NCBI GenBank assembly: GCA_964409615.1
Contig: CAYPDT010000001.1
Span: 243,880 to 307,879 of the forward strand
Source of the DNA: an uncultured Candidatus Saccharibacteria bacterium
Lineage (GTDB): Bacteria; Patescibacteriota; Saccharimonadia; Saccharimonadales; AWTP1-31
Direction: 5' to 3'
DNA: 64,000 bases
In this document: positions 34,378 to 54,798 of the stretch, piece after piece
How positions within the stretch are numbered: position 1 is the first letter of the stretch
Layout of the letters: each line of letters opens with the position of its first letter
Notes under the pieces: generated by a model
Seen by the model: the letters and a program-made list of their open reading frames with translations, nothing else
What the model was told of the DNA's origin: nothing
Databases searched by the model: none
Translations under genes and position numbers: made by a program

Positions 34378-35025
34378 TTAGAGGAAGGACTTAAGTTTTG
34401 CGGTGTCCTTCAATAGAATGAACGACCGCTTTGCCTCAATCAGCCCCTTTTGCTCTAAGGCTGCAAGTTCTCGACCTGTAGTTTCGCGCGAAGCGTTAAT
34501 AGAACTAGCAATATCTTGCTGCCTGAGCGGCACATTCAGTAGCATGCCCTCATCAGTCTTACTTCCAAAGCGCTTAGCTGAACCAAGCAAAAAAGAAATT
34601 AGTCGTTCTCTAACCGTGCGATACTCAAGACTCATGATTCGCTCGCTATGAATCCGGTACATCTCTATTGTCATATCTAATACTGGCGCCAGTGCATCTG
34701 GGTGGCTGTACAGGTAGTCTAAATATTGTTTGCGCGTAATCCTCCAAACGGTTACGTCAGATAGTGCTTGGTAGATAACACTGCGCTCTTGGCCAGTAAT
34801 GGCCCAGATTAATGGGAATATTTCGTGCTCTTTACGAATAATAAGCAGGTTTTCTTCACCGTATTTTGTGATGTCAAAGGCCTTGATAAGACCTGTCTCG
34901 ATATAAAAAACCGCCGAAGGCTGCTCGCCCGGGCGGATAATGAACTCGTTTTTACTATACTTCAGGCATGTACCCTGCTTGAAGGTCTGGATAAGGGTGT
35001 TGGTTTGTTTTTCAGTAGCCAACAT
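34378..35025 (-). CDS. Crp/Fnr-family transcriptional regulator
   Basis: cNMP-binding-like beta-barrel N-terminus and C-terminal HTH (IASSINASRETTGRELAALEQKGLI). Confidence 0.75.
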   Translation of the reverse strand: MLATEKQTNTLIQTFKQGTCLKYSKNEFIIRPGEQPSAVFYIETGLIKAFDITKYGEENLLIIRKEHEIFPLIWAITGQERSVIYQALSDVTVWRITRKQYLDYLYSHPDALAPVLDMTIEMYRIHSERIMSLEYRTVRERLISFLLGSAKRFGSKTDEGMLLNVPLRQQDIASSINASRETTGRELAALEQKGLIEAKRSFILLKDTAKLKSFL

Positions 35026-35161
35026 ATATTAATTATGCCAGAAAATTGCGATTAAACTAGCCTCGAATGTGCGAAATGTCACACCGCCAAAGTGAGCTTG
35101 TTGGCTGTAGCTAAAACACAATCAGCATATAGTAGAAGTTGTTAAGCAGGAGGTGCGTAAC

Positions 35162-35761
35162 ATGGTTGACCCGCGTATAGTCAAACAGCAACTAGACCGG
35201 CTGGGCGTACAGTTCGCCTTTGTTGGTCAGGCCGAAGCAAATGAACTCCCGCAAATTCTCATGGAAGGCGAAGAAGTACAGCATGTTATCGTGGGGCGTT
35301 ACAGTGGCGGCTTCGCCATAATGTGCGCCACCAACTTACGGCTCCTCTTAATCGATAAGAAGCTATTCTTCTTGACTGTCGAAGACATCCGCTACGACAT
35401 GATTGCAGAACTCGATTACGGCCATCAGCTTGTTGGCGCTACCATTCACATACGGAGCTTTAGTAAAGACTTAAAATTCCAAAGCTTTAAAAAACTGAAG
35501 TTGCGAGAATTCACATCATTCGTTCAGCAGAAGGTTATGGAAATACGCCAACAACAAAAAGCTGACAATCCATTGATACCAATCCAAACATTTAGCGACC
35601 GCGACACCGACCTAACTCCTGCCCAGGCACAATCGCTAGTACCGCTGACTGCAGAAACTTGGTATAAAGCTAATCCACCTGCTGCCGTAACTCATCCATA
35701 CACTCAAACACCGTTACTAACTCGCCGTCGAATTGGACGCTTCGACGCAGCCAGTAAGTAA
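35162..35761 (+). CDS. Hypothetical protein, possible bacterial PH-like domain
   Basis: SD AGGAGG lies 8 nt before the ATG at 35162. The segment EEVQHVIVGRYSGGFAIMCATNLRLLLIDKK resembles bacterial PH-domain proteins. Confidence 0.4.
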   Translation: MVDPRIVKQQLDRLGVQFAFVGQAEANELPQILMEGEEVQHVIVGRYSGGFAIMCATNLRLLLIDKKLFFLTVEDIRYDMIAELDYGHQLVGATIHIRSFSKDLKFQSFKKLKLREFTSFVQQKVMEIRQQQKADNPLIPIQTFSDRDTDLTPAQAQSLVPLTAETWYKANPPAAVTHPYTQTPLLTRRRIGRFDAASK

Positions 35762-35762
35762 A

Positions 35763-36233
35763 CTACGCTCGCCTTTGCTCAAGCCGGCGAATACGGATTT
35801 CGTGATTATCATGCTGACTTTGCGTAACTTCATGTGTATCGTCTAGCGCATCGGCAATGGCCACAGAAAGCTCGTGAAAATGCAATGACAACGACGACTC
35901 AAGCTGGTCAATACGTTGCTCTAGTCGTGTGAAGTGTTGACTGTGACTGTCCAAGCGTTTTTCGACTTTCGTAAAATGCTGGTTGTACCCTTGAAGTTGT
36001 TCTTCAAATCGTGTGAACCGCTGGTTGTAACCTTGAAGTTGTTCTTCAAATCGTATGGAACGCTGGCTGTGACTGTCCAAGCGTTTTTTAATTTGCGACA
36101 AGTGCTGCTCGTATGTATCGAGATGCTTTGTAATACCTTGTAGATGCTGGCTATGCGCCATAAGTTGAGATTGAACACCCGAAAAAGCACCACCGATAAA
36201 ATGTTTTAGGTCTGCAACTGCGTCTGTATCCAT
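35763..36233 (-). CDS. Coiled-coil repeat protein (hypothetical)
   Basis: Heptad-like Q/L/H-rich sequence with internal repeats (RFTRFEEQLQGYNQ twice; RLDSHSQ twice). Confidence 0.5.
   Translation of the reverse strand: MDTDAVADLKHFIGGAFSGVQSQLMAHSQHLQGITKHLDTYEQHLSQIKKRLDSHSQRSIRFEEQLQGYNQRFTRFEEQLQGYNQHFTKVEKRLDSHSQHFTRLEQRIDQLESSLSLHFHELSVAIADALDDTHEVTQSQHDNHEIRIRRLEQRRA
35979..36061 (-). repeat. 42-nt tandem coding repeat (2 copies, about 41-42 nt each), flanked by a further 22-nt direct repeat
   Basis: GCTGGTTGTA-ACC(C)TTGAAGTTGTTCTTCAAATCGT.. occurs twice in tandem. CTGTGACTGTCCAAGCGTTTTT occurs at about 35941 and 36066. Confidence 0.7.
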
Positions 36234-36315
36234 GCATTCATGGTATCAGTCTGCTAGTGAGATAGAAATTGCTAACAATAAAAATAGCCCACAAAATGGG
36301 CCAATTTCTTAAATA

Positions 36316-36390
36316 TGGTGCGGGTGGAGGGAATCGAACCCTCGTCCTGAGTTTGGAAAACTCATATACTAGCCGTTGTACGACACCCGC
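36316..36390 (-). tRNA. tRNA-Gly (anticodon TCC), CCA encoded
   Basis: Manual cloverleaf: acceptor GCGGGTG/CACCCGC, anticodon stem TGAGT/ACTCA with loop TTTCCAA, T arm GAGGG-TTCGATT-CCCTC. Confidence 0.85.
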
Positions 36391-36582
36391 GAAGTAAACT
36401 GAAAAAGTAAATTTGGTAGTTTGGCTGTTGGACAGCTGGGCTAGTGTAGCATTTTTTGAACTGTTTTTCTACTGGGCGCAATAAAATGCCACAGCTGCAG
36501 TCAACCATACTTAGGTAACTTTTTCTTCAGAATTCAAGGAGTGATGAGCTATACTATAGCTATCGTTAACAGAAACGACCGT

Positions 36583-36659
36583 GCCCTGATAGCTCAGTTG
36601 GATAGAGCAGGAGACTTCTAAGCTCAAGGTCGGGGGTTCGAATCCCTCTCGGGGCGCCA
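36583..36659 (+). tRNA. tRNA-Arg (anticodon TCT), CCA encoded
   Basis: Acceptor GCCCTGA/TCGGGGC, D arm GCTC-AGTTGGATA-GAGC, anticodon loop CTTCTAA, T arm GGGGG-TTCGAAT-CCCTC. The anticodon stem has only 3 clean pairs (GGAGA/GCTCA). Confidence 0.75.
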
Positions 36660-36692
36660 AACATTCAAACGTAGTACTATATAAGCAGAATT

Positions 36693-37337
36693 ATGCGAAA
36701 ATCTATTTCATCAATAACTGCTCGCCGACGTGTCTTTATATCAATTGCCTGCGGACTGCTTGTTGGTTTAGCCGTGGCCCGTACTGGCCATCCTTATATG
36801 GCAGGCCTTTTAGGATGGGACGTTACAGCCATCACCTTTATGATTCGTCTCTGGCTGCACATCTGGCCGATGAATGAAAAAGAAACTGCTGAGCATGCTA
36901 TGGTCGAAGACCCAACCCGAGCGACCGCATATTCAATTCTGCTCATCGCTAGCCTGGCTAGCTTGGGCGGTGCAGGAGTAATTCTGGCAAAGGCCAGTCA
37001 TGCGCAAGGGAGTCTCGAAGTACTACTGGCCTTATTAGGCGTAGGCAGTGTGGTGGTTTCTTGGTTGATTGTTCACACGCTTTATACGTTGCGTTATACG
37101 GTACTGTACTTTACTCCACCAGAAGGTGGCGTGAGTTTTAATAAAGATATTCGGCCAACCTATAGCGATTTCGCATACCTTGCCTTCACACTTGGCATGA
37201 CATACCAAGTTTCTGACACTGGTTTCGAAACACGTAAGTTTCGAAAGCTGGCACTGACGCACGCATTGTTTTCTTTCTTGTTTGGCACGGCAATTCTTGC
37301 AACCACCATCAACTTACTGGCTGGGCTTGGCCGCTAA
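36693..37337 (+). CDS. DUF1345-family membrane protein
   Basis: The C-terminal half (LYTLRYTVLYF..GGVSF..PTYSDFAYLAFTLGMTYQVSD..RKLALTHALFSFLFGTAILATTINLL) matches the DUF1345 pattern as I remember it. Confidence 0.65.
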   Translation: MRKSISSITARRRVFISIACGLLVGLAVARTGHPYMAGLLGWDVTAITFMIRLWLHIWPMNEKETAEHAMVEDPTRATAYSILLIASLASLGGAGVILAKASHAQGSLEVLLALLGVGSVVVSWLIVHTLYTLRYTVLYFTPPEGGVSFNKDIRPTYSDFAYLAFTLGMTYQVSDTGFETRKFRKLALTHALFSFLFGTAILATTINLLAGLGR

Positions 37338-37398
37338 ACTCACTCACCTGCTCCGGAGTTGTAAAATAGTACCATAACAGATATAATGGGCAAGTTCT

Positions 37399-37476
37399 GG
37401 CGGATGTAGCTCAGTTGGTTAGAGCGTCTGTTTGTGGCACAGAAGGCCGTGGGTTCAATTCCCATCATTCGCCCCA
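37399..37476 (+). tRNA. tRNA-His (anticodon GTG) with encoded G-1 and CCA
   Basis: An extra 5' G pairs with discriminator C. Acceptor GCGGATG/CATTCGC, anticodon stem TCTGT/ACAGA with loop TTGTGGC, T arm GTGGG-TTCAATT-CCCAT. Confidence 0.85.
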
Positions 37477-37496
37477 GAATTCGACTAAAATTAAAA

Positions 37497-37520
37497 AGTG
37501 ACCCAACGTGGTCGCTTTTT
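37497..37520 (+). terminator. Intrinsic terminator after tRNA-His
   Basis: AGTGACC-CAACGT-GGTCGCT stem (one G-U pair) followed by TTTTT. Confidence 0.6.
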
Positions 37521-37524
37521 ATAT

Positions 37525-37671
37525 TTGACAAACAGCTTTTGGCTATGGATAATAGTCGGAATGCAAAGTATGTACGTAATCTGCAAGCGCAAGAAGACCC
37601 ATTTGGGGCTTGTTTTGCTGTAACGTCAAATTACTACATGCATAACTCGACCCCGAAAGGGGTCGTTTTTT
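37525..37671 (+). promoter_or_regulatory. Promoter plus ~110-nt structured leader plus intrinsic terminator (riboswitch/attenuator or sRNA candidate)
   Basis: TTGACA (37525-37530), 17-nt spacer, GATAAT (37548-37553). Terminator CGACCCC-GAAA-GGGGTCG plus T6 at 37648-37671. The next ATG is at 37706. Confidence 0.5.
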
Positions 37672-37705
37672 ATGCAAACGTTTTAGTACCAAGAAAAGAA
37701 TTATC

Positions 37706-38710
37706 ATGAAAGAAACTATTTTACCCAACCAAACCAGTTCAATCGGTGCCGCTTGGCCTCCTGTAGAGGCGAGTTTTGAGCGCCAACGTGGTTTCTATAT
37801 GGAAGGAGTTGTTGGGCCAGACCATGCATCGGTAGCTAATTTTACCGAGCAGTATCGTGACCAACGCTCATTTTTTGGGCGCGTCCATTCCGAAACGGGA
37901 TTACGAGCCACACGTCTCAGTGTTCGTGCTGTTGTTGCGTCAACCGCCGTTCGGCAGATTGCACAGCTAATGCCAGTAGAGGCAGCTATCCCGCTGGGAG
38001 GCGAACATCAGGGTCACCATATTGTGTATGTCGGCGCCAATACAACTGGCAGAGATGTTCATAGTAACATTATCGACAAACACCGTCAGCGATTAGCTGA
38101 GGTTATCGATGGCAACCTGCCCTCTCCAATCACTCAAGCTGACTTAACGAGCAGGAATATTGAAGTTTCAACCGTTCGTCCAGAGCAGTCAGCCGAATAT
38201 CTAGACCAGTTCTGCGAGCTGTACCGTTCGTTCGGCTATGACCGTAAAGACACCGAAGAATTACTCGAGAATCCAGACAATACTATCGTCTTCGCTCGAG
38301 ATGTTACTACCGGTGATGTTGTTAGCTCAGCCATGGCCGAACATGCTTCTATAGAAATTGCAGGTATGGGTGAGTTATCTATAGTCGAAATAACCGAAGC
38401 GATTACTCTGCCCGACCAACGCGGTCGTGGCCTCTACCGCGTAGTTTCTGGCTTACTGACAGATGAGTTAGTTGATCAATCTAAAAACGGTGAATCACCA
38501 ATCCACGCCATTTACGGCGAGTCGAACCTGGCAGCCGTGGGCGTATTACGAGCGGCGTATCAAAACGGTCGTCGTTTTAGTGCCTTCGATGGCCAGGAGC
38601 TGGGTATCGACAGCCCACGCTTTGGAATTTTGCCACAAAACTTTTCGGTACAAGACGGCATCGAACAACGGCCGTACAATGATTTTGCTGTAAGCTACGT
38701 TCCGCTATAG
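37706..38710 (+). CDS. Hypothetical protein with C-terminal GNAT-like acetyltransferase motif
   Basis: The segment ITLPDQRGRGLYRVV resembles GNAT motif A (Q/R-x-x-G-x-G/A). The N-terminal half is unassigned. Confidence 0.4.
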   Translation: MKETILPNQTSSIGAAWPPVEASFERQRGFYMEGVVGPDHASVANFTEQYRDQRSFFGRVHSETGLRATRLSVRAVVASTAVRQIAQLMPVEAAIPLGGEHQGHHIVYVGANTTGRDVHSNIIDKHRQRLAEVIDGNLPSPITQADLTSRNIEVSTVRPEQSAEYLDQFCELYRSFGYDRKDTEELLENPDNTIVFARDVTTGDVVSSAMAEHASIEIAGMGELSIVEITEAITLPDQRGRGLYRVVSGLLTDELVDQSKNGESPIHAIYGESNLAAVGVLRAAYQNGRRFSAFDGQELGIDSPRFGILPQNFSVQDGIEQRPYNDFAVSYVPL

Positions 38711-38722
38711 TAAAGGGGCCTC

Positions 38723-39403
38723 ATGAAATATCACGAACCACTCCAGGAAATGTTTACCCAATCAAAACTAATGATTTTAGACTTTGCCCTCATTCCACAG
38801 GGCCTGCCCACGACTGAGAATATTCAGCTCTTCTTTGAGACGCAAAGTAAGGCAGGCGTTAACCCACGGCTTCCAGAACATAGGCAAGTATTTAACAATC
38901 GGATGCTTACAGAAACCGGCGCACGATATTTAGTCAGTCAATATGGTGAAGATAGAAGCGCAATGCTGGCTGGCTCGTCTATTGCCGACGAAGGCCGCAC
39001 GCTACATATGGGCATCGACATCTTTTCTCGCGAACTTGAAACCGTATACGCACCCTGTGATGGCACTATTGTTCGAGCCAGTTACGAAGATCAAGACCAC
39101 GGGTATGGTCACTACCTCGTATTAAAACCGGATGATGCTGAGTTGTACTTTTTTATGGGACATTTGAGTAAAAAGCTACCTCAACTCGGTGCGGTCAAGG
39201 CTGGCGAAGCAATCGCTACACTTGGTGATTTTCACGACCAAGAAAACGGTGGATGGACGCGCCATCTACACTTACAAATTTGCACCGAGCTGCCGCCTGA
39301 GGGTCAAACACCAATTGGTTACTCCACCAAGCAAGCATTTGCCGTAAACAGCCTGAAGTTCCCTAACCCTTTCAATTATTTTCCAGATTGGCGTCTTAAA
39401 TAA
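38723..39403 (+). CDS. M23 (LytM)-family metallopeptidase-like protein, no signal peptide
   Basis: HxxxD (LHMGIDI), the APCDGTIV turn, GYGHYLVL, and HxH (HLHLQI). Confidence 0.65.
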   Translation: MKYHEPLQEMFTQSKLMILDFALIPQGLPTTENIQLFFETQSKAGVNPRLPEHRQVFNNRMLTETGARYLVSQYGEDRSAMLAGSSIADEGRTLHMGIDIFSRELETVYAPCDGTIVRASYEDQDHGYGHYLVLKPDDAELYFFMGHLSKKLPQLGAVKAGEAIATLGDFHDQENGGWTRHLHLQICTELPPEGQTPIGYSTKQAFAVNSLKFPNPFNYFPDWRLK

Positions 39404-39429
39404 ACCCGAACTTAATTCTTGAAATCAGT

Positions 39430-39579
39430 ATGCACACTACAAAACAGTAGCCAGGATTGACTCTTCGACAGCGCAGCCGGGTTGGTATGACAAGGAAATG
39501 CGATAGTGTTATTGCAGTTCAGTTGTCATACCATCCGCGCGTGAGCGGTCTGGCCTGGCTACTGTTTTGGAGTGTGCAT
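39430..39579. repeat. 150-nt extended imperfect inverted repeat (long hairpin; ncRNA or MITE candidate)
   Basis: Outer arms 39430-39455 / 39554-39579 form 26 bp with 1 mismatch. An internal loop of about 15 x 11 nt and an irregular GC-rich segment follow. The inner stem 39484-39493 / 39523-39532 is a perfect 10 bp, and a small apical hairpin GCGATA-GTGT-TATTGC closes it. Confidence 0.6.
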
Positions 39580-39763
39580 CTACGGGCTTCAGCAAATATT
39601 CATATTGAGTAAGTACTATGGGGTTGTTGCCTGAGCAATCAGCAACAGCTAACCAAAACCGGTTGTCACATCACCAAAAGAGTGCAGAGGCACTCGATGT
39701 GCGGAGGCGGTCAGCACGATACGTAACAAGGAGGCGATTATTAAGCAACAGATTAAACGAGGA

Positions 39764-40279
39764 TTGTTAGTGAGTGGTGCCGTACTGAGCATTGGCGCCG
39801 CGAGCGTTGGCACTATGGGCTTGGCACATGCCGCGACAAGCTCAAACACCAGCACCAATCCGCAACAAGGTCTTATCGACAAACTCGTCAGCAAATTCAA
39901 TCTCAACAAAGATGATGTGCAGAAGGTGTTTGATCAAGATCGTAGCGACCGCGAAGCAAATCGTCAGCAAGAGATTCAAGATAAAATTACCGCACTCGTA
40001 AAGGACGGTAAGCTAACCCAAGATCAAGCTGACAAACTTATTGCCAAAGGCAAGGAGCTACAAACGCAGCGCGAAGCAAATCGTGACGCCATGATGAATA
40101 AAACTGATGCAGAACGCAAAACAGCAATGGATGCCGGGCGCGACAGTTTTAAAAAATGGCTGAGCGATAATGGTATCGCCGAAGAGTATGGTCGACTCAT
40201 TATGGGTCATGGCCATGGTGGACGAGGCCCCGGTGGCCCACCGCCAAGTGAGTCATCGAACTCATCAACTTCTAACTAA
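39764..40279 (+). CDS. Secreted helical Lys/Asp/Gln-rich protein with Gly/His/Pro tail (hypothetical)
   Basis: Signal peptide ..SIGAASVGTMGLAHA/ATSS. The ORF-track TTG start at 39764 lacks an SD. An in-frame ATT at 39740 lies 5 nt after AAGGAGG (see findings). Confidence 0.55.
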   Translation: MLVSGAVLSIGAASVGTMGLAHAATSSNTSTNPQQGLIDKLVSKFNLNKDDVQKVFDQDRSDREANRQQEIQDKITALVKDGKLTQDQADKLIAKGKELQTQREANRDAMMNKTDAERKTAMDAGRDSFKKWLSDNGIAEEYGRLIMGHGHGGRGPGGPPPSESSNSSTSN

Positions 40280-40298
40280 CGGAGGTCAGGCACAATAA

Positions 40299-40325
40299 CA
40301 AAGCACCGTACCACGCGGTGCTTTG
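40299..40325 (+). terminator. Intrinsic terminator
   Basis: CAAAGCACCG-TACCACG-CGGTGCTTTG, a perfect 10-bp stem, followed by TTGTGTT. Confidence 0.6.
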
Positions 40326-40399
40326 TTGTGTTCTTGGCATAAGGCTACTCTTCAAGCAGTGTTATCTCTGTTATAATATGAGCTGAAAGAGAGGTTCCC

Positions 40400-42265
40400 T
40401 TGAAAAAGCTATTGAAGAATATTGCTGGATTTTTTACTGAGTATAAACAATTTGGATTTACGCTGCTCAGCGTGGTAATCGCATTAGTGCTACAACTAGT
40501 TGGTGCAAAAACTGCGGCACATATCGTACTTGCCGTGAGCGCTGGCATCAACCTTATCCCGCTACTGTGGGGTATGATTCAAGACCTACGAGTTGGCACC
40601 TATGGCGTTGACATCCTTGCTGCTACGGCTATCGCCAGCTCGCTACTCTTCCGGGAATACTGGACGGCTATTATCATCGTCTTCATGTTAACTGGCGGCG
40701 AAGCCTTAGAAGATTACGCCGAAAAACGCGCACAATCAGAGCTGACAGCGTTATTATCGCGAGCGCCTCAAAAAGCTCACGTGCTGCGTGGCCGTAAAGA
40801 AATTGATATTCCAGCTAGTCAGGTACAAGTTGGCGATAAAGTGGTCGTTAAGCCTGGTGAAGTGGTGCCGGTTGATGGGACAATTCTTGAAGGTACCTCC
40901 GACTTTGACGAGTCAAGCCTAACCGGTGAGAGTCTACCAGTCACAAAAGTTGTTAGCCAAGAAATCCTCAGCGGTTCATTAGCTGTTGATGGTTCTGTAG
41001 TGATTAAAGCCAGTAACAACGCAAGGGACAGTCAATATAGCCAAATTATTAAACTCGTTAAGTCAGCGCAGGCTAGTCGTGCGCCATTTGTGAGACTGGC
41101 CGATGTCTACGCTGTACCGTTCACGTTGCTATCATTCACCATTGCCCTAGGGGCTTGGGCACTCAGCGGAGACAGTTTACGCTTCTTGCAAGTTTTGGTT
41201 GTAGCAACTCCCTGCCCGCTTATCCTTGGAGCTCCGATTGCCTTAGTTTCTGGCATGAGCCGGGCTGCAAAACACGGTATTATTATCAAAAATGGCGGCG
41301 CTCTTGAACAACTAGCAAAGATTAAAACCCTCGGCTTCGACAAAACTGGAACACTAACCGAAGGATTACCAAAAGTTAAAAAAGTTGAAACCTTTGGTAA
41401 CTACAAGCAATCAGATGTATTGAGCTACGCTTCGGCTTTAGAACAAAAGTCTAATCATGTACTTGCACAAACAATCGTCGACTATGCTGCAAGCAAGAAG
41501 ATTAAGCCCGTTAAAGCTAAGAACATCCAAGAAATTCCTGGTATGGGACTTCGTTCGGTAGTTAGTGGCAAAACAGTATTAGTTGGTAAGTTCAATCTTA
41601 TGAAAGAAGAAAAAGTTACCCTAGCCAAGAATATTACTGCCCAAAGTATTAAAGATACCGCAGCATACGTGGCTATTGATGGCTCTTTGGCAGGCATCAT
41701 TACATTTGAAGATGCGTTGCGCCCCGAAGCTAAAAAGACCCTGGCACGCATTCAAGCTCTTGGTATCAAGCAGTTGCTCATGGTGACTGGCGATAATAAA
41801 ACCACTGCTCAAGCTATTGCTAAGAAACTTGGTATTACTAAAGTCGTCGCCGAAGCCATGCCGGGCGATAAGCTGATTGCTATCGAAAATGCCGAGAAAC
41901 AACCCGTCGGCTTTGTGGGAGATGGTGTCAACGACGCCCCTGTGCTTACGGTAGCAAGTGTGGGTATTGCCCTTGGTGCCCGAGGTTCTACTGCCGCCAG
42001 CGAGTCTGCTGATGTAGTTATATTGCAAGATGACTTAGAACATGTTGCTACCAGTGTAGATATTGCCAAGAAGACTATTCGCGTAGCTAAACAAGCAATT
42101 TTGACAGGTATCTTTTTAAGCGTAGTTTTGATGTTCATCTTTGCAAGCGGTAAATTTGCTCCAATCTATGGTGCAGCCATTCAAGAATTAGTCGATGTAG
42201 TGGTCATCATCTACGCACTGCGCGCCCACCAAGACAAAGCCTACAAAACGTTCCGCGCTCGGTAA
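40400..42265 (+). CDS. Heavy-metal-translocating P1B-type ATPase without N-terminal metal-binding domain
   Basis: TGES (SLTGESLP), DKTGTLT, MVTGDN, GDGVNDAP, and membrane motif ATPCPL. There is no HMA (CxxC) domain. TTG start. Confidence 0.85.
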   Translation: MKKLLKNIAGFFTEYKQFGFTLLSVVIALVLQLVGAKTAAHIVLAVSAGINLIPLLWGMIQDLRVGTYGVDILAATAIASSLLFREYWTAIIIVFMLTGGEALEDYAEKRAQSELTALLSRAPQKAHVLRGRKEIDIPASQVQVGDKVVVKPGEVVPVDGTILEGTSDFDESSLTGESLPVTKVVSQEILSGSLAVDGSVVIKASNNARDSQYSQIIKLVKSAQASRAPFVRLADVYAVPFTLLSFTIALGAWALSGDSLRFLQVLVVATPCPLILGAPIALVSGMSRAAKHGIIIKNGGALEQLAKIKTLGFDKTGTLTEGLPKVKKVETFGNYKQSDVLSYASALEQKSNHVLAQTIVDYAASKKIKPVKAKNIQEIPGMGLRSVVSGKTVLVGKFNLMKEEKVTLAKNITAQSIKDTAAYVAIDGSLAGIITFEDALRPEAKKTLARIQALGIKQLLMVTGDNKTTAQAIAKKLGITKVVAEAMPGDKLIAIENAEKQPVGFVGDGVNDAPVLTVASVGIALGARGSTAASESADVVILQDDLEHVATSVDIAKKTIRVAKQAILTGIFLSVVLMFIFASGKFAPIYGAAIQELVDVVVIIYALRAHQDKAYKTFRAR

Positions 42266-52866: not shown

Positions 52867-54798
52867 CTAACGACTAGCTGTAGTGGACGAATACCTCTTA
52901 GCAATGATCACGATGAGCGCAGTGGTAAACAGTGTGACTGTCAGAGTGACAATGGGGTTGCTTCGGATGAGGCCACCAAAACCAGTGTTTGGTACACCCA
53001 GGTTGCGTGACAGCAAGACTTGCCCATCATTACCTGCGGAAGGGTTGCTTGGGAATTGAGTGGTTGCAGCACCAGCGACAAAACCGACTCTGTACTGCGC
53101 AGCATAACCGCCAACATTACTACATACAACTTTATAGTTTTGCTGACCAGACGTTGCGGTTACATTGATGGTGGCACTGCCGCCTGAGACAGTAGCGGAG
53201 TTGCTGCCAATGGCACAGGTAGTGGCATTCGTAGAAGTAACGGTGATGGGCACGGTGTCACCTTCTGTATGAGTACCGCCAGCTGCGGCTGCAGTTGTAA
53301 TGGCTGGCTTGTTATTCATTGCAGACAAAGTAGCTGCAAGTGCTAATCGCTTCTGTGAAGTCGTGGTATAGCTTGGACGGTTGTCGGTGATAGTCACTGC
53401 AGTCTCTTGCATGATACGGAGTATTGTGGCCACAGTAGCACTGGGGTTCTTTTCGCGCGCTACGGCCCAAGCACCAGCTACTATTGGACCAGCAAAAGAG
53501 GTGCCCTGCTCATCGACTAAACCGTTATTGCTGCTCACATCTGCTAGTGGTAGTCCACCATCATTAGTATTGAGTAGGTCGCCACCTGGCGCAAAGATAT
53601 CTGTTCTAGGACCTGCCTCGGTATAGTAAGCTGGGGTGTCGTCGACAGCACTAGCTGAGACTGCAACCGCGTTGGTTAGACAAGCTGGCCATGCAATTTT
53701 GTTAGCATTAGCAACGTGAACTGTCTGACCATTACCAGTATCTGTATTGCCGTTGTTGTGAGCAATCATGACCGGTGCGATATTAGCTTCACGGAGTGCT
53801 GCAAAAGCAGTGAGATACGGACCAGACTGCGAGTCTGCATCACAAGTGCTCGTGTCGCTGTAGGTGTTGTCTGGCTGTCCGATACTAACATTTACAGAGC
53901 TAATCGGTTCATTAAGTGCAGCATCATTCTGTAGTTGCGCAACTCGGTTGAGACCAGTAAGCACACCACTCATATTAACTTTATAGCAGAAGGAAACTGT
54001 TCCTGGATCTCCACAGAAGTCTGCCTGGCCGGCTTTTTCTTGTACCTTTAAAGTTGCCTTTATAAGTACAAGCTTTGCAGCCTTAGCAGAACCAGAGTAA
54101 CTCTTTCCACCACCTGTGACTTGCCTTCCGGCTGCAGCACTTGCAACGGCAGTCCCGTGAGCACAGGTGCCATCGTCAACTCCTACACTACAATCACTAG
54201 CCGCCGAAGATCCTGTCGATGTACTTGAATCAGCTCCGCCAGCACAAGTACTTATTACTTCAGCATCGGTATAACTTCCGCTTTGGCTGTAGCACGCCTC
54301 ACTCACGACTGCGCCTGACAACATAATGTGATTCAGGTTAAAGCCGGAATCGATAATAGCGACCGTCTGACCATTACCGGTGAAGTTAGTAGTACCATCG
54401 CTAAAACCATTAGCAACAGTTCCGCCCATCACTGGCAATGCCTGGTCGGTTCCAGCACCAATATCCAGTAATTTGTCTTCTGTAATCGATTTAATGCGCT
54501 TGTTAGCACGAAGCGAAGCCTCTCCCTCTGCATCTACCTGGACAACTGATACAGGCATTTCGCTGAGGTTCCGGAGAACGCGCTTATAGCCTTTTGTATA
54601 ACTAAGTTCGGTCATAACTCGGTTTTTCTGCCAGAAATACTTGGCACGAGTCTGAGCAACGCCTACTGATGTTCGCGGTTCACCTGGCAAGCTATCGTAC
54701 GTAATGATAAGCGACTTGATTGGTCCGTTTGGTGTCTCACTTCCCTCAGCCATCACAGGAGTTGAACCAATAAAGGCAAAGCCAGCTAATTGCAGCAA
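52867..54798 (-). CDS. Sortase-anchored S8 (subtilisin-like) serine peptidase, VPNTG signal; 5' end probably at 54860 via a 1-nt shift
   Basis: Catalytic triad contexts VAIIDSGFN (Asp), HGTAVAS (His), GTSFAGPIVAG (Ser). The C-terminus is GVPNTG, a hydrophobic helix and KRYSSTTASR. See the finding on the A7 tract. Confidence 0.8.
   Translation of the reverse strand: MLQLAGFAFIGSTPVMAEGSETPNGPIKSLIITYDSLPGEPRTSVGVAQTRAKYFWQKNRVMTELSYTKGYKRVLRNLSEMPVSVVQVDAEGEASLRANKRIKSITEDKLLDIGAGTDQALPVMGGTVANGFSDGTTNFTGNGQTVAIIDSGFNLNHIMLSGAVVSEACYSQSGSYTDAEVISTCAGGADSSTSTGSSAASDCSVGVDDGTCAHGTAVASAAAGRQVTGGGKSYSGSAKAAKLVLIKATLKVQEKAGQADFCGDPGTVSFCYKVNMSGVLTGLNRVAQLQNDAALNEPISSVNVSIGQPDNTYSDTSTCDADSQSGPYLTAFAALREANIAPVMIAHNNGNTDTGNGQTVHVANANKIAWPACLTNAVAVSASAVDDTPAYYTEAGPRTDIFAPGGDLLNTNDGGLPLADVSSNNGLVDEQGTSFAGPIVAGAWAVAREKNPSATVATILRIMQETAVTITDNRPSYTTTSQKRLALAATLSAMNNKPAITTAAAAGGTHTEGDTVPITVTSTNATTCAIGSNSATVSGGSATINVTATSGQQNYKVVCSNVGGYAAQYRVGFVAGAATTQFPSNPSAGNDGQVLLSRNLGVPNTGFGGLIRSNPIVTLTVTLFTTALIVIIAKRYSSTTASR

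Follow-up and report, generated by a model that had tools for sequence, protein, structure and literature searches.

A predicted leader-peptide attenuator with lysine codons upstream of a GNAT-like/M23-like gene pair in Saccharibacteria

What controls the expression of an uncharacterised gene pair in an uncultured Candidatus Saccharibacteria bacterium, and to what signal does that control respond? The pair, a GNAT-like gene followed by an M23-like gene, lies in a 64,000-nt stretch of contig CAYPDT010000001.1 (assembly GCA_964409615.1, positions 243,880 to 307,879 of the forward strand). We call this whole stretch the window and give positions in its own numbering; the leader discussed here and both genes are on its + strand. 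A first-pass annotation made from the sequence alone had described a promoter, a structured leader and a strong terminator in front of the pair, and had named a riboswitch, an attenuator and an independent small RNA (sRNA) as alternatives without choosing among them. Judging from its conservation among relatives, the leader is a real, conserved cis-regulatory element. We predict that it is probably a ribosome-mediated (leader-peptide) transcription attenuator that senses charged tRNA-Lys.

The leader and its small reading frame

In the promoter of the window, the –35 hexamer TTGACA (37525-37530) and the –10 hexamer GATAAT (37548-37553) are separated by a 17-nt spacer; the site is an 11/12 match and is the top promoter-like site within 35000-41000. 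The –10 hexamer is 7 nt 5' of the ATG of an open reading frame (ORF) of 20 codons plus TAA (37561-37623; MQSMYVICKRKKTHLGLVLL followed by the stop). Codons 9-12 of this ORF are AAG-CGC-AAG-AAG (37585-37596), and every Lys codon, at positions 9, 11 and 12, is AAG. The ORF is followed by an intrinsic terminator at 37648-37671, CGACCCC-GAAA-GGGGTCG plus T6 (hairpin 37648-37665, T6 37666-37671), which has a 7-bp stem with 6 G-C pairs and a GAAA loop and is first-listed among the terminator-like sites in our scan. The next gene begins with an ATG at 37706. We found the promoter, the terminator ending at 37671 and the start of the next gene just where the first-pass annotation had put them, and the 20-codon ORF that it had raised as possibly leaderless is present and is conserved in frame in relatives. 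Two features expected of an attenuator are found here, namely a short ORF with clustered Lys codons and an intrinsic terminator between that ORF and the gene.

We collected 40 loci (named L001-L040) around homologues of the 334-amino-acid (aa) protein encoded by the first gene of the pair; a contig search with the single protein as query returned 3 loci. Relatives of the protein with a named source are almost all from Candidatus Saccharibacteria/Saccharimonadales metagenome-assembled genomes. Leaders of the window type are present in L004 and L005 (58-59% protein identity) and in the near-identical contigs L031 and L032, and all four share the TTGACA/GATAAT promoter with diverged spacers, the ATG 7 nt past the –10 hexamer, the 20-codon ORF and the terminator. 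In L004 and L005, both hexamers are identical to those of the window despite differing spacer sequences, and the terminator is kept as CGGCCCC-AAA-GGGGTCG plus T5. The peptides of L004 (MQRVVAIIKRKKTHTGLVLL) and L005 (MQRVMVVIKCKKTHTGLVLL), each followed by a stop, are equal to the window's peptide in length and frame, and the 12 C-terminal residues are nearly identical in all three. When we compared codons 9-20 of the window and L004, we found 5 differing codons, 4 with synonymous third-position changes (CGC/CGA, CAT/CAC, GGG/GGC, GTT/GTC) and 1 with a replacement. Codons 2-8 diverge freely between the two, and the frame is never broken.

In relatives with 37-48% protein identity, we found a second kind of leader, which we call main-type (L001, L003, L006, L009, L010, L012-L014, L017, L018, L029, L030 and others). 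The upstream ORF (uORF) of these leaders is different and has 18-20 codons, for example MSNLTALVLKKKSSKPRP, MVICHNLFDSKKKSTKLRP and MLYIITQISNNKKSLKLRP, each followed by a stop. Main-type peptides have the form ..KK.S.KLRP-stop with a conserved ..K(L/P)RP-stop, whereas the window type ends in ..THLGLVLL-stop.

To describe the uORFs as a population, there are 17 distinct leaders upstream of homologues of the first gene that have a uORF of 12-20 codons, and each uORF is followed by a terminator. The uORF frame is open in 16/16 complete leaders, and the other two frames contain 39 stops over 32 frames. A –10-like hexamer is present 5-9 nt 5' of the uORF ATG in 14/16 complete leaders (background 16%), from which we predict that the uORF mRNAs are leaderless. 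Lys codons form a cluster of 3-5 in each uORF, ~8-12 codons before the stop. Among the 57 Lys codons of the 17 leaders, 55 are AAG and 2 are AAA; in the long ORFs of the same loci, which we took as background, AAG accounts for a fraction of 0.2-0.55 of Lys codons and Lys for ~3-5% of codons. The Lys-codon cluster is the sole peptide feature common to window-type and main-type leaders. In all 18 leader-bearing loci that we examined, a member of the same gene family directly follows the element, ~23-59 nt downstream and in the same orientation, and most of the homologues in leader-bearing loci have 37-59% protein identity to the window's gene.

Alternative pairings and the proposed switch

The 113-nt leader RNA is predicted to fold with –37.5 kcal/mol, which corresponds to z = –4.1 against dinucleotide shuffles, and 0/200 shuffles were as stable. 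In the minimum free energy (MFE) fold of the free RNA, we found a long-range helix, a GACCC/GGGGC-tipped hairpin and the terminator. The hairpin is the internal GACCC..GGGGC hairpin of the first-pass annotation. The long-range helix, P1 (37561-37643), joins uORF codons 1-6 (37561-37577) to the segment after the stop (37623-37643). The first-pass annotation had drawn a helix between these same two segments, and this part of its claim stood; the exact register that it gave (ATGTACGTAAT with ATTAC-TACAT) differs in detail from the MFE fold. A helix joining the equivalent segments recurs in L004 (CGUGUAGUAG with CUAC..UACACG). In L005, the P1-like segments have a different sequence and are complementary by eye (GUAAUGGUAGUU with AACUAC..CAUUAC), and this helix is absent from the L005 MFE fold.

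The rest of the leader can be described as regions that compete for pairing. Region 1 (37582-37600) is the 5' arm of hairpin P2 and holds the Lys codons, and the AAG codons also pair with CUU/GUU within P2. Region 2 (37602-37622; codons 15-20 plus the stop; UUUGGGGCUUGUUUUGCUGUA) is either the 3' arm of P2 or the 5' strand of an antiterminator. Region 3 (37635-37657; UACAUGCAUAACUCGACCCCGAA) is the 3' strand of the antiterminator and includes the 5' arm and loop of the terminator, which is itself the pairing of regions 3:4. In this model, P1 would sequester part of region 3 in untranslated RNA. The first-pass annotation had proposed that the GGGG of the internal hairpin could instead pair with the CCCC of the terminator's 5' arm; we found that this GGGG is the 5' end of the 2:3 antiterminator, a helix of ~17-19 bp with internal loops.

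To follow these pairings in the presence of a ribosome, we masked its footprint in each leader before folding and took this footprint to extend to +15 nt from the first P-site nucleotide. With the footprint at K9, the antiterminator (2:3) is the MFE structure in the window, L031, L004 and L005. With the footprint at K11, the antiterminator is the MFE structure in L031, L004 and L005 and not in the window sequence. With the footprint at the stop codon, the terminator alone remains in all four sequences. The free RNA forms P1, P2 (1:2) and the terminator in 3/4 sequences (window, L031 and L004). The antiterminator has –17.7 to –21.9 kcal/mol as compared to –13 to –14 kcal/mol for the terminator, and when the upstream segment was shuffled (1000 trials per sequence), the terminator was displaced in only 0.4-3.7% of trials. 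In these folds and under the assumed footprint, terminator and antiterminator exclude each other; a ribosome at the stop codon hides the 5' strand of the antiterminator, and one stalled at codon 9 leaves it exposed, as in an attenuator. These folding models suggest a trp-type 1:2/2:3/3:4 arrangement for the window-type leader.

The 99%-identical contigs L031 (position 1032) and L032 differ from position 37650 of the window by an A/G polymorphism in the 5' arm of the terminator. With the G variant, the terminator pair is kept as G-U and the predicted antiterminator changes from –17.7 to –21.9 kcal/mol.

In main-type leaders, the antiterminator is built from other sequences. Helix A (GGCCGUAGCGC) contains the stop codon, and its partner A' (GCGCUACGGCC) is the 10-nt loop of the terminator. 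The A:A' antiterminator is a compact 11-bp helix that is 93.5% paired across leaders, with 4 pairs that show double changes. The main-type terminator (GCCCCG/CGGGGC plus a U-run) is 91.7% paired, with C-G and U-A alternating 8:6. In constrained folds, a stall at the KK codons gives the antiterminator in 11/13 sequences and a ribosome at the stop gives the terminator in 13/13; a 1:2 anti-antiterminator is present in 8/13 main-type leaders. We built a covariance model, R1, from 14 main-type leaders with helix A:A' included. R1 gave no match on the window with default filters. When the filters were turned off, it aligned to 37561-37615 without the A:A' helix and scored 9.3 bits (E = 0.08 over 601 nt). 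By this comparison the window type is not in the main-type sequence family, and its predicted logic is the same.

We propose that the window leader would work as follows. Transcription would start at or beside the A of the ATG at 37561 to give a leaderless mRNA, and a ribosome on the 5' AUG would translate the 20-codon ORF while RNA polymerase continues through the leader. When Lys-tRNA is ample, the ribosome would pass AAG codons 9, 11 and 12 and reach the UAA (37621-37623), where a footprint of the assumed size, arriving at the right time, would cover region 2; the 3:4 terminator would then form and a ~110-nt RNA would be released near 37671. When Lys-tRNA is scarce, the ribosome would stall at AAG codon 9 (possibly 11) and hold region 1, region 2 would pair with region 3, no terminator would form, and the polymerase would read through into the GNAT-like and M23-like genes. 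RNA that is not translated would form P1, P2 (1:2) and the terminator, which would be an off state. The switch would respond to a shortage of charged Lys-tRNA by turning the genes on.

The regulated genes and their lysine-related context

The first gene (37706-38710) encodes the 334-aa protein, whose C-terminal half has a GNAT fold and whose N-terminal half is unassigned. This protein had no Pfam or NCBIfam match; its homologues have PF13527. When we searched its AlphaFold2 model (pLDDT 91.6) with Foldseek, it matched GNAT acetyltransferases over about half of the query, including AAC(3) and AAC(6'). The second gene (38723-39403) encodes an M23-like metallopeptidase (Pfam PF01551, E = 8.5e-12) with no obvious signal peptide. 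The GNAT-like/M23-like pair is also present in L029, L030, L031, L034 and L036.

In more distant homologues, we found other leaders at the same gene. In L024, L026 and L027 (~30% identity), whose clade includes a Candidatus Roizmanbacteria protein, a T-box-like leader is present in the same position (L024:2174-2450, L026:566-830 and L027:2110-2450, with RF00230 E = 4e-8, 1e-7 and 0.59). The canonical AAUCAAGGUGGUACC core is present in 3/3 loci, as is a terminator. Their Stem I is very short, with no distal platform, and has the internal loop AC / C-AAG-A; C-AAG-A is invariant on the 3' side of this loop in the three loci, while the flanking stems vary yet stay complementary. A T-box specifier codon has a purine after it that adjoins the helix, and by this positional rule we read the specifier as AAG (Lys). 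The T-box-like leaders may be a divergent, Roizmanbacteria-like variant from the Candidate Phyla Radiation (CPR) with a Lys (AAG) specifier. In this clade, the gene overlaps a gene for an ArgE/DapE-family M20 deacylase, forming an operon.

The neighbours of this operon also include lysine-related genes. In L039 (3668-4038) and L040 (3662-4035), the gene next after the GNAT-like and M20 operon encodes a lysine-tRNA ligase (lysS; E = 5e-24, N-terminal 123 aa) of 687 aa, which carries an additional HD domain. In L037 (3646-4053), LysW-like zinc-ribbon genes adjoin the operon (weak match). The lysine-tRNA ligase and LysW-like neighbours suggest a link between the enzyme pair and lysine. The upstream regions of L037-L040 have no T-box; we found there a palindrome, TGTTAAAATTTTAACA (~1405-1430), between the GNAT-like/M20 operon and a divergent gene; the product of this gene, a regulator of 212-219 aa, is weakly ACT/aspartate-kinase-like at its C-terminus. 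A similar half-site, ATTATTAACA or AATATTAACA, is upstream of Saccharibacteria homologues without a Lys leader (L016, L021, L034 and L036). We take the palindrome or half-site for a probable protein operator that stands in for the RNA sensors. With leader peptides, a Lys T-box and a protein with its operator at one gene family, the family appears to be under three different regulators.

CPR bacteria largely lack amino-acid biosynthesis. One wider reading, which we offer tentatively and regard as possible rather than probable, is that the GNAT-like gene and the M23-like or M20 metallohydrolase would form an unrecognised lysine acquisition or salvage module of CPR bacteria. In the same joint claim, this module would have independently acquired three kinds of sensor (an ACT-domain repressor with its operator, a T-box with a reduced Stem I, and two unrelated leaderless attenuators), and the RNA sensors would be specific for the AAG-reading isoacceptor tRNA-Lys(CUU). 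To test the CUU-isoacceptor idea we looked for tRNA-Lys genes and found none in the window or in the collected locus sequences. The locus L033, from Nocardia gamkensis (JAAXOS010000007.1), has no Lys leader in its upstream region; its homologue of the GNAT-like protein (38% identity) has as neighbours an M20 peptidase of the ArgE/DapE family and an HTH_31 regulator. Actinobacteria are known as hosts of cultivated Saccharibacteria, and the homologue in Nocardia could reflect gene transfer.

Directly upstream of the leader there is a tRNA cluster with tRNA-Gly(tcc) at 36316-36390 (– strand), tRNA-Arg(tct) at 36583-36659 (+) and tRNA-His(gtg) at 37400-37476 (+). The tRNA-His gene is preceded by a separate promoter-like site, TTGTAA-N17-TATAAT (37359-37387), and followed by a hairpin plus T5 (37499-37519), which is predicted to insulate the leader promoter; the tRNA-Arg/tRNA-His pair is likewise upstream in L004. 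Further upstream, 35763-36233 (–) encodes a 156-aa coiled-coil protein with internal near-repeats (..RFEEQLQGYNQRFTRFEEQLQGYNQHFTKVEKRLDSHSQHF..), for which the Pfam matches are weak and of a generic coiled-coil kind. We also scanned the window for a second Lys leader, using all short ORFs with at least 3 AAG in five codons, and only 37561-37623 precedes a terminator. The main-type helix-A 11-mer (GGCCGTAGCGC) recurs without mismatch at 53457-53467 (–), within a 643-aa ORF. We judged this copy to be a chance match because it is inside an ORF and has no complementary partner or terminator nearby.

Competing explanations and known systems

Several observations weigh against a lysine-sensing attenuator in the window. 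The free-RNA MFE fold of L005 is not the terminator form. When the A site is on codon 12 (in the window also on codon 11), the terminator is again the MFE structure; the footprint then reaches region 2, so that productive stalling would be limited to the first one or two Lys codons. Covariation, by which the first-pass annotation had proposed to judge the structure, is present in the main-type antiterminator helix and terminator, but for the window-type 2:3 helix it is anecdotal because only three diverged window-type sequences exist. L002 and L018 have no –10 hexamer at a leaderless distance. In L018 (1766-1883), the Lys uORF begins 1 nt past the stop of another short ORF, and in L002 and L007, which both lack a –10 hexamer at that distance, the uORF is shorter, with 12 codons; leaderlessness is therefore not obligatory for every family member. 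The exclusive use of AAG could come from avoiding slippery A-runs or from pairing with CUU/GUU in region 2. The T-box-like leaders score 20-48 bits, below the Rfam gathering score of 93, and their apparent AAG specifier is assigned by position only.

Could the leader be an attenuator of another kind? The signal might be translation capacity, a ribosome-targeting antibiotic, or arrest on a polybasic (KRKK) stretch or at Pro-stop, with the Lys codons serving arrest or RNA pairing. GNAT enzymes include antibiotic acetyltransferases, and AAC(3) and AAC(6') are among the Foldseek matches; the main-type ..K(L/P)RP-stop is conserved; and the AAG codons have pairing partners in P2. The RP-stop resembles that of TnaC, and termination after proline is slow. 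However, the window peptide ends in ..GLVLL-stop, so the RP-stop is not common to both types, and where it does occur it coincides with the helix A sequence CGGCCGUAG, an overlap that explains its conservation at the RNA level. The AAG-A loop of the T-box-like leaders and the lysS, LysW and DapE/ArgE-like context favour lysine specifically, and we consider another signal unlikely. The conservation of the 12 C-terminal residues in the window, L004 and L005, and of KLRP in the main type, could also mean that the uORF encodes a functional peptide, such as an enzyme substrate or precursor or a small membrane peptide, with the terminator setting stoichiometry. Operons for ribosomally synthesised and post-translationally modified peptides (RiPPs) commonly have a precursor gene, a leaky terminator and modification enzymes, and the layout of the locus resembles this. 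Yet conservation in the peptide falls exactly on the residues whose codons form the RNA helices (region 2 and helix A), and the two peptide types have only their Lys codons in common. The homologous enzyme pairs of L034 and L036 (with M23), and those of L024-L027 and L037-L040 (with M20), lack the uORF and have a T-box or operator instead, and a simple stoichiometry terminator would need no mutually exclusive antiterminator. A functional peptide is thus, in our view, quite improbable.

The two remaining explanations do without the ORF or without the downstream gene. An sRNA of ~110 nt acting in trans, with its position upstream of the GNAT-like gene a coincidence, would fit a transcript with its own strong promoter and strong terminator, and RNA or peptide derived from an attenuator can act in trans, as with rnTrpL and peTrpL in Sinorhizobium (PMC7298713, PMC7968998). 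Against this stand the 18/18 leader loci that tie the element to the same downstream family at a short distance and in a fixed orientation; because the element is always directly 5' of that family, a stand-alone sRNA is not needed, and we give it little credence. The fixed position is, on sequence evidence, the signature of a cis-regulator, and the terminated ~110-nt RNA may have a secondary role in trans. A metabolite or ion riboswitch with a terminator platform, in which the ORF is incidental, would account for the strong structure (z = –4.1), for the alternation of terminator and antiterminator, and for downstream genes without known metabolic function. When we searched Rfam, we found nothing in the leader at gathering thresholds (whole window) or at E <= 10 (37300-37800), where only tRNA-His and chance-level matches were returned; neither the lysine riboswitch RF00168 nor the T-box RF00230 matched at E <= 10, in agreement with the first-pass annotation, which had recognised no RNA family. 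The loops and junctions are not conserved, whereas the ATG at the predicted transcription start, the open frame and the stop position are. The main-type model R1 does not recognise the window type, as its 9.3 bits indicate, and the two therefore have no shared aptamer. We reject the riboswitch because conservation tracks codons and helices without a shared aptamer, and it is the least probable of these explanations. Taken together, these data suggest that, among the alternatives left side by side by the first-pass annotation, the attenuator is the supported one and the metabolite riboswitch is unsupported.

Leader-peptide attenuation is a textbook mechanism, and the cases known to us are for Trp, His, Phe, Leu, Thr, Ile/Val and Cys; where genes are controlled by lysine, the L-box riboswitch or a protein regulator is usually held responsible. 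We know of no described attenuator that uses Lys codons. A literature search, whose coverage was incomplete so that an earlier description is possible, found no lysine-codon leader-peptide attenuator and no attenuator of any kind for Saccharibacteria or CPR bacteria. If the prediction is true, the window leader would be the first known attenuator based on lysine codons, and also the first ribosome-mediated one described in CPR bacteria. If confirmed, it would add a lysine-specific leaderless attenuator to the known repertoire and would indicate that ribosome-coupled control of transcription operates in ultra-small episymbionts. It would also offer a clue to the function of an uncharacterised gene pair found across CPR bacteria, which would be induced when Lys-tRNA is low and tied to lysS, LysW and DapE-like genes, and would provide a natural example of T-box, protein operator and leader peptide swapping upstream of one orthologous gene.

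Among known and related systems, the main-type Saccharibacteria leaders share with the window the downstream gene family, a leaderless uORF, an AAG cluster, alternating antiterminator and terminator, and a uORF stop in or beside the 5' strand of the antiterminator. Unlike the window, they have the ..KLRP-stop C-terminus and an 11-bp antiterminator that uses the terminator loop as its 3' strand. T-boxes (RF00230) share the purpose, since in them tRNA charging controls a terminator, and they share the position in L024, L026 and L027; in contrast to them, the window leader has no AAnnnGGGUGGUACCGCG core, Stem I or tRNA-binding elements, and charging would be read through the ribosome. The L-box (RF00168) is likewise a cis leader that acts on a terminator in response to lysine. 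Its ligand is free lysine and its effect is to turn genes off, whereas the window element would read Lys-tRNA via translation.

The enterobacterial attenuators trpL, hisL, leuL, thrL, pheL and ilvL share with the window leader a uORF with a cluster of the sensed codon and a terminator before the structural genes and, as far as the folding models go, the 1:2, 2:3 and 3:4 alternatives and coverage of segment 2 by the ribosome at the stop codon. Unlike these attenuators, the window leader has AAG Lys codons, is predicted to be leaderless rather than led by a Shine-Dalgarno sequence, belongs to a Saccharibacteria-type (CPR) host, matches no Rfam leader family and precedes genes that are not a recognised biosynthetic operon. 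Leaderless attenuators are found in actinobacteria, where leaderless polycysteine ORFs act as attenuators in mycobacteria (bioRxiv 10.1101/834739) and a uORF/attenuator is present at Corynebacterium ilvB (PMC10272879, PMC11857589). In these systems, as in the window, the uORF is at the 5' end of the transcript and a cluster of codons for one amino acid controls the downstream operon. The actinobacterial attenuators differ in that they belong to another phylum and use Cys or branched-chain codons instead of Lys codons, whereas the window leader has a clear terminator and an explicit antiterminator.

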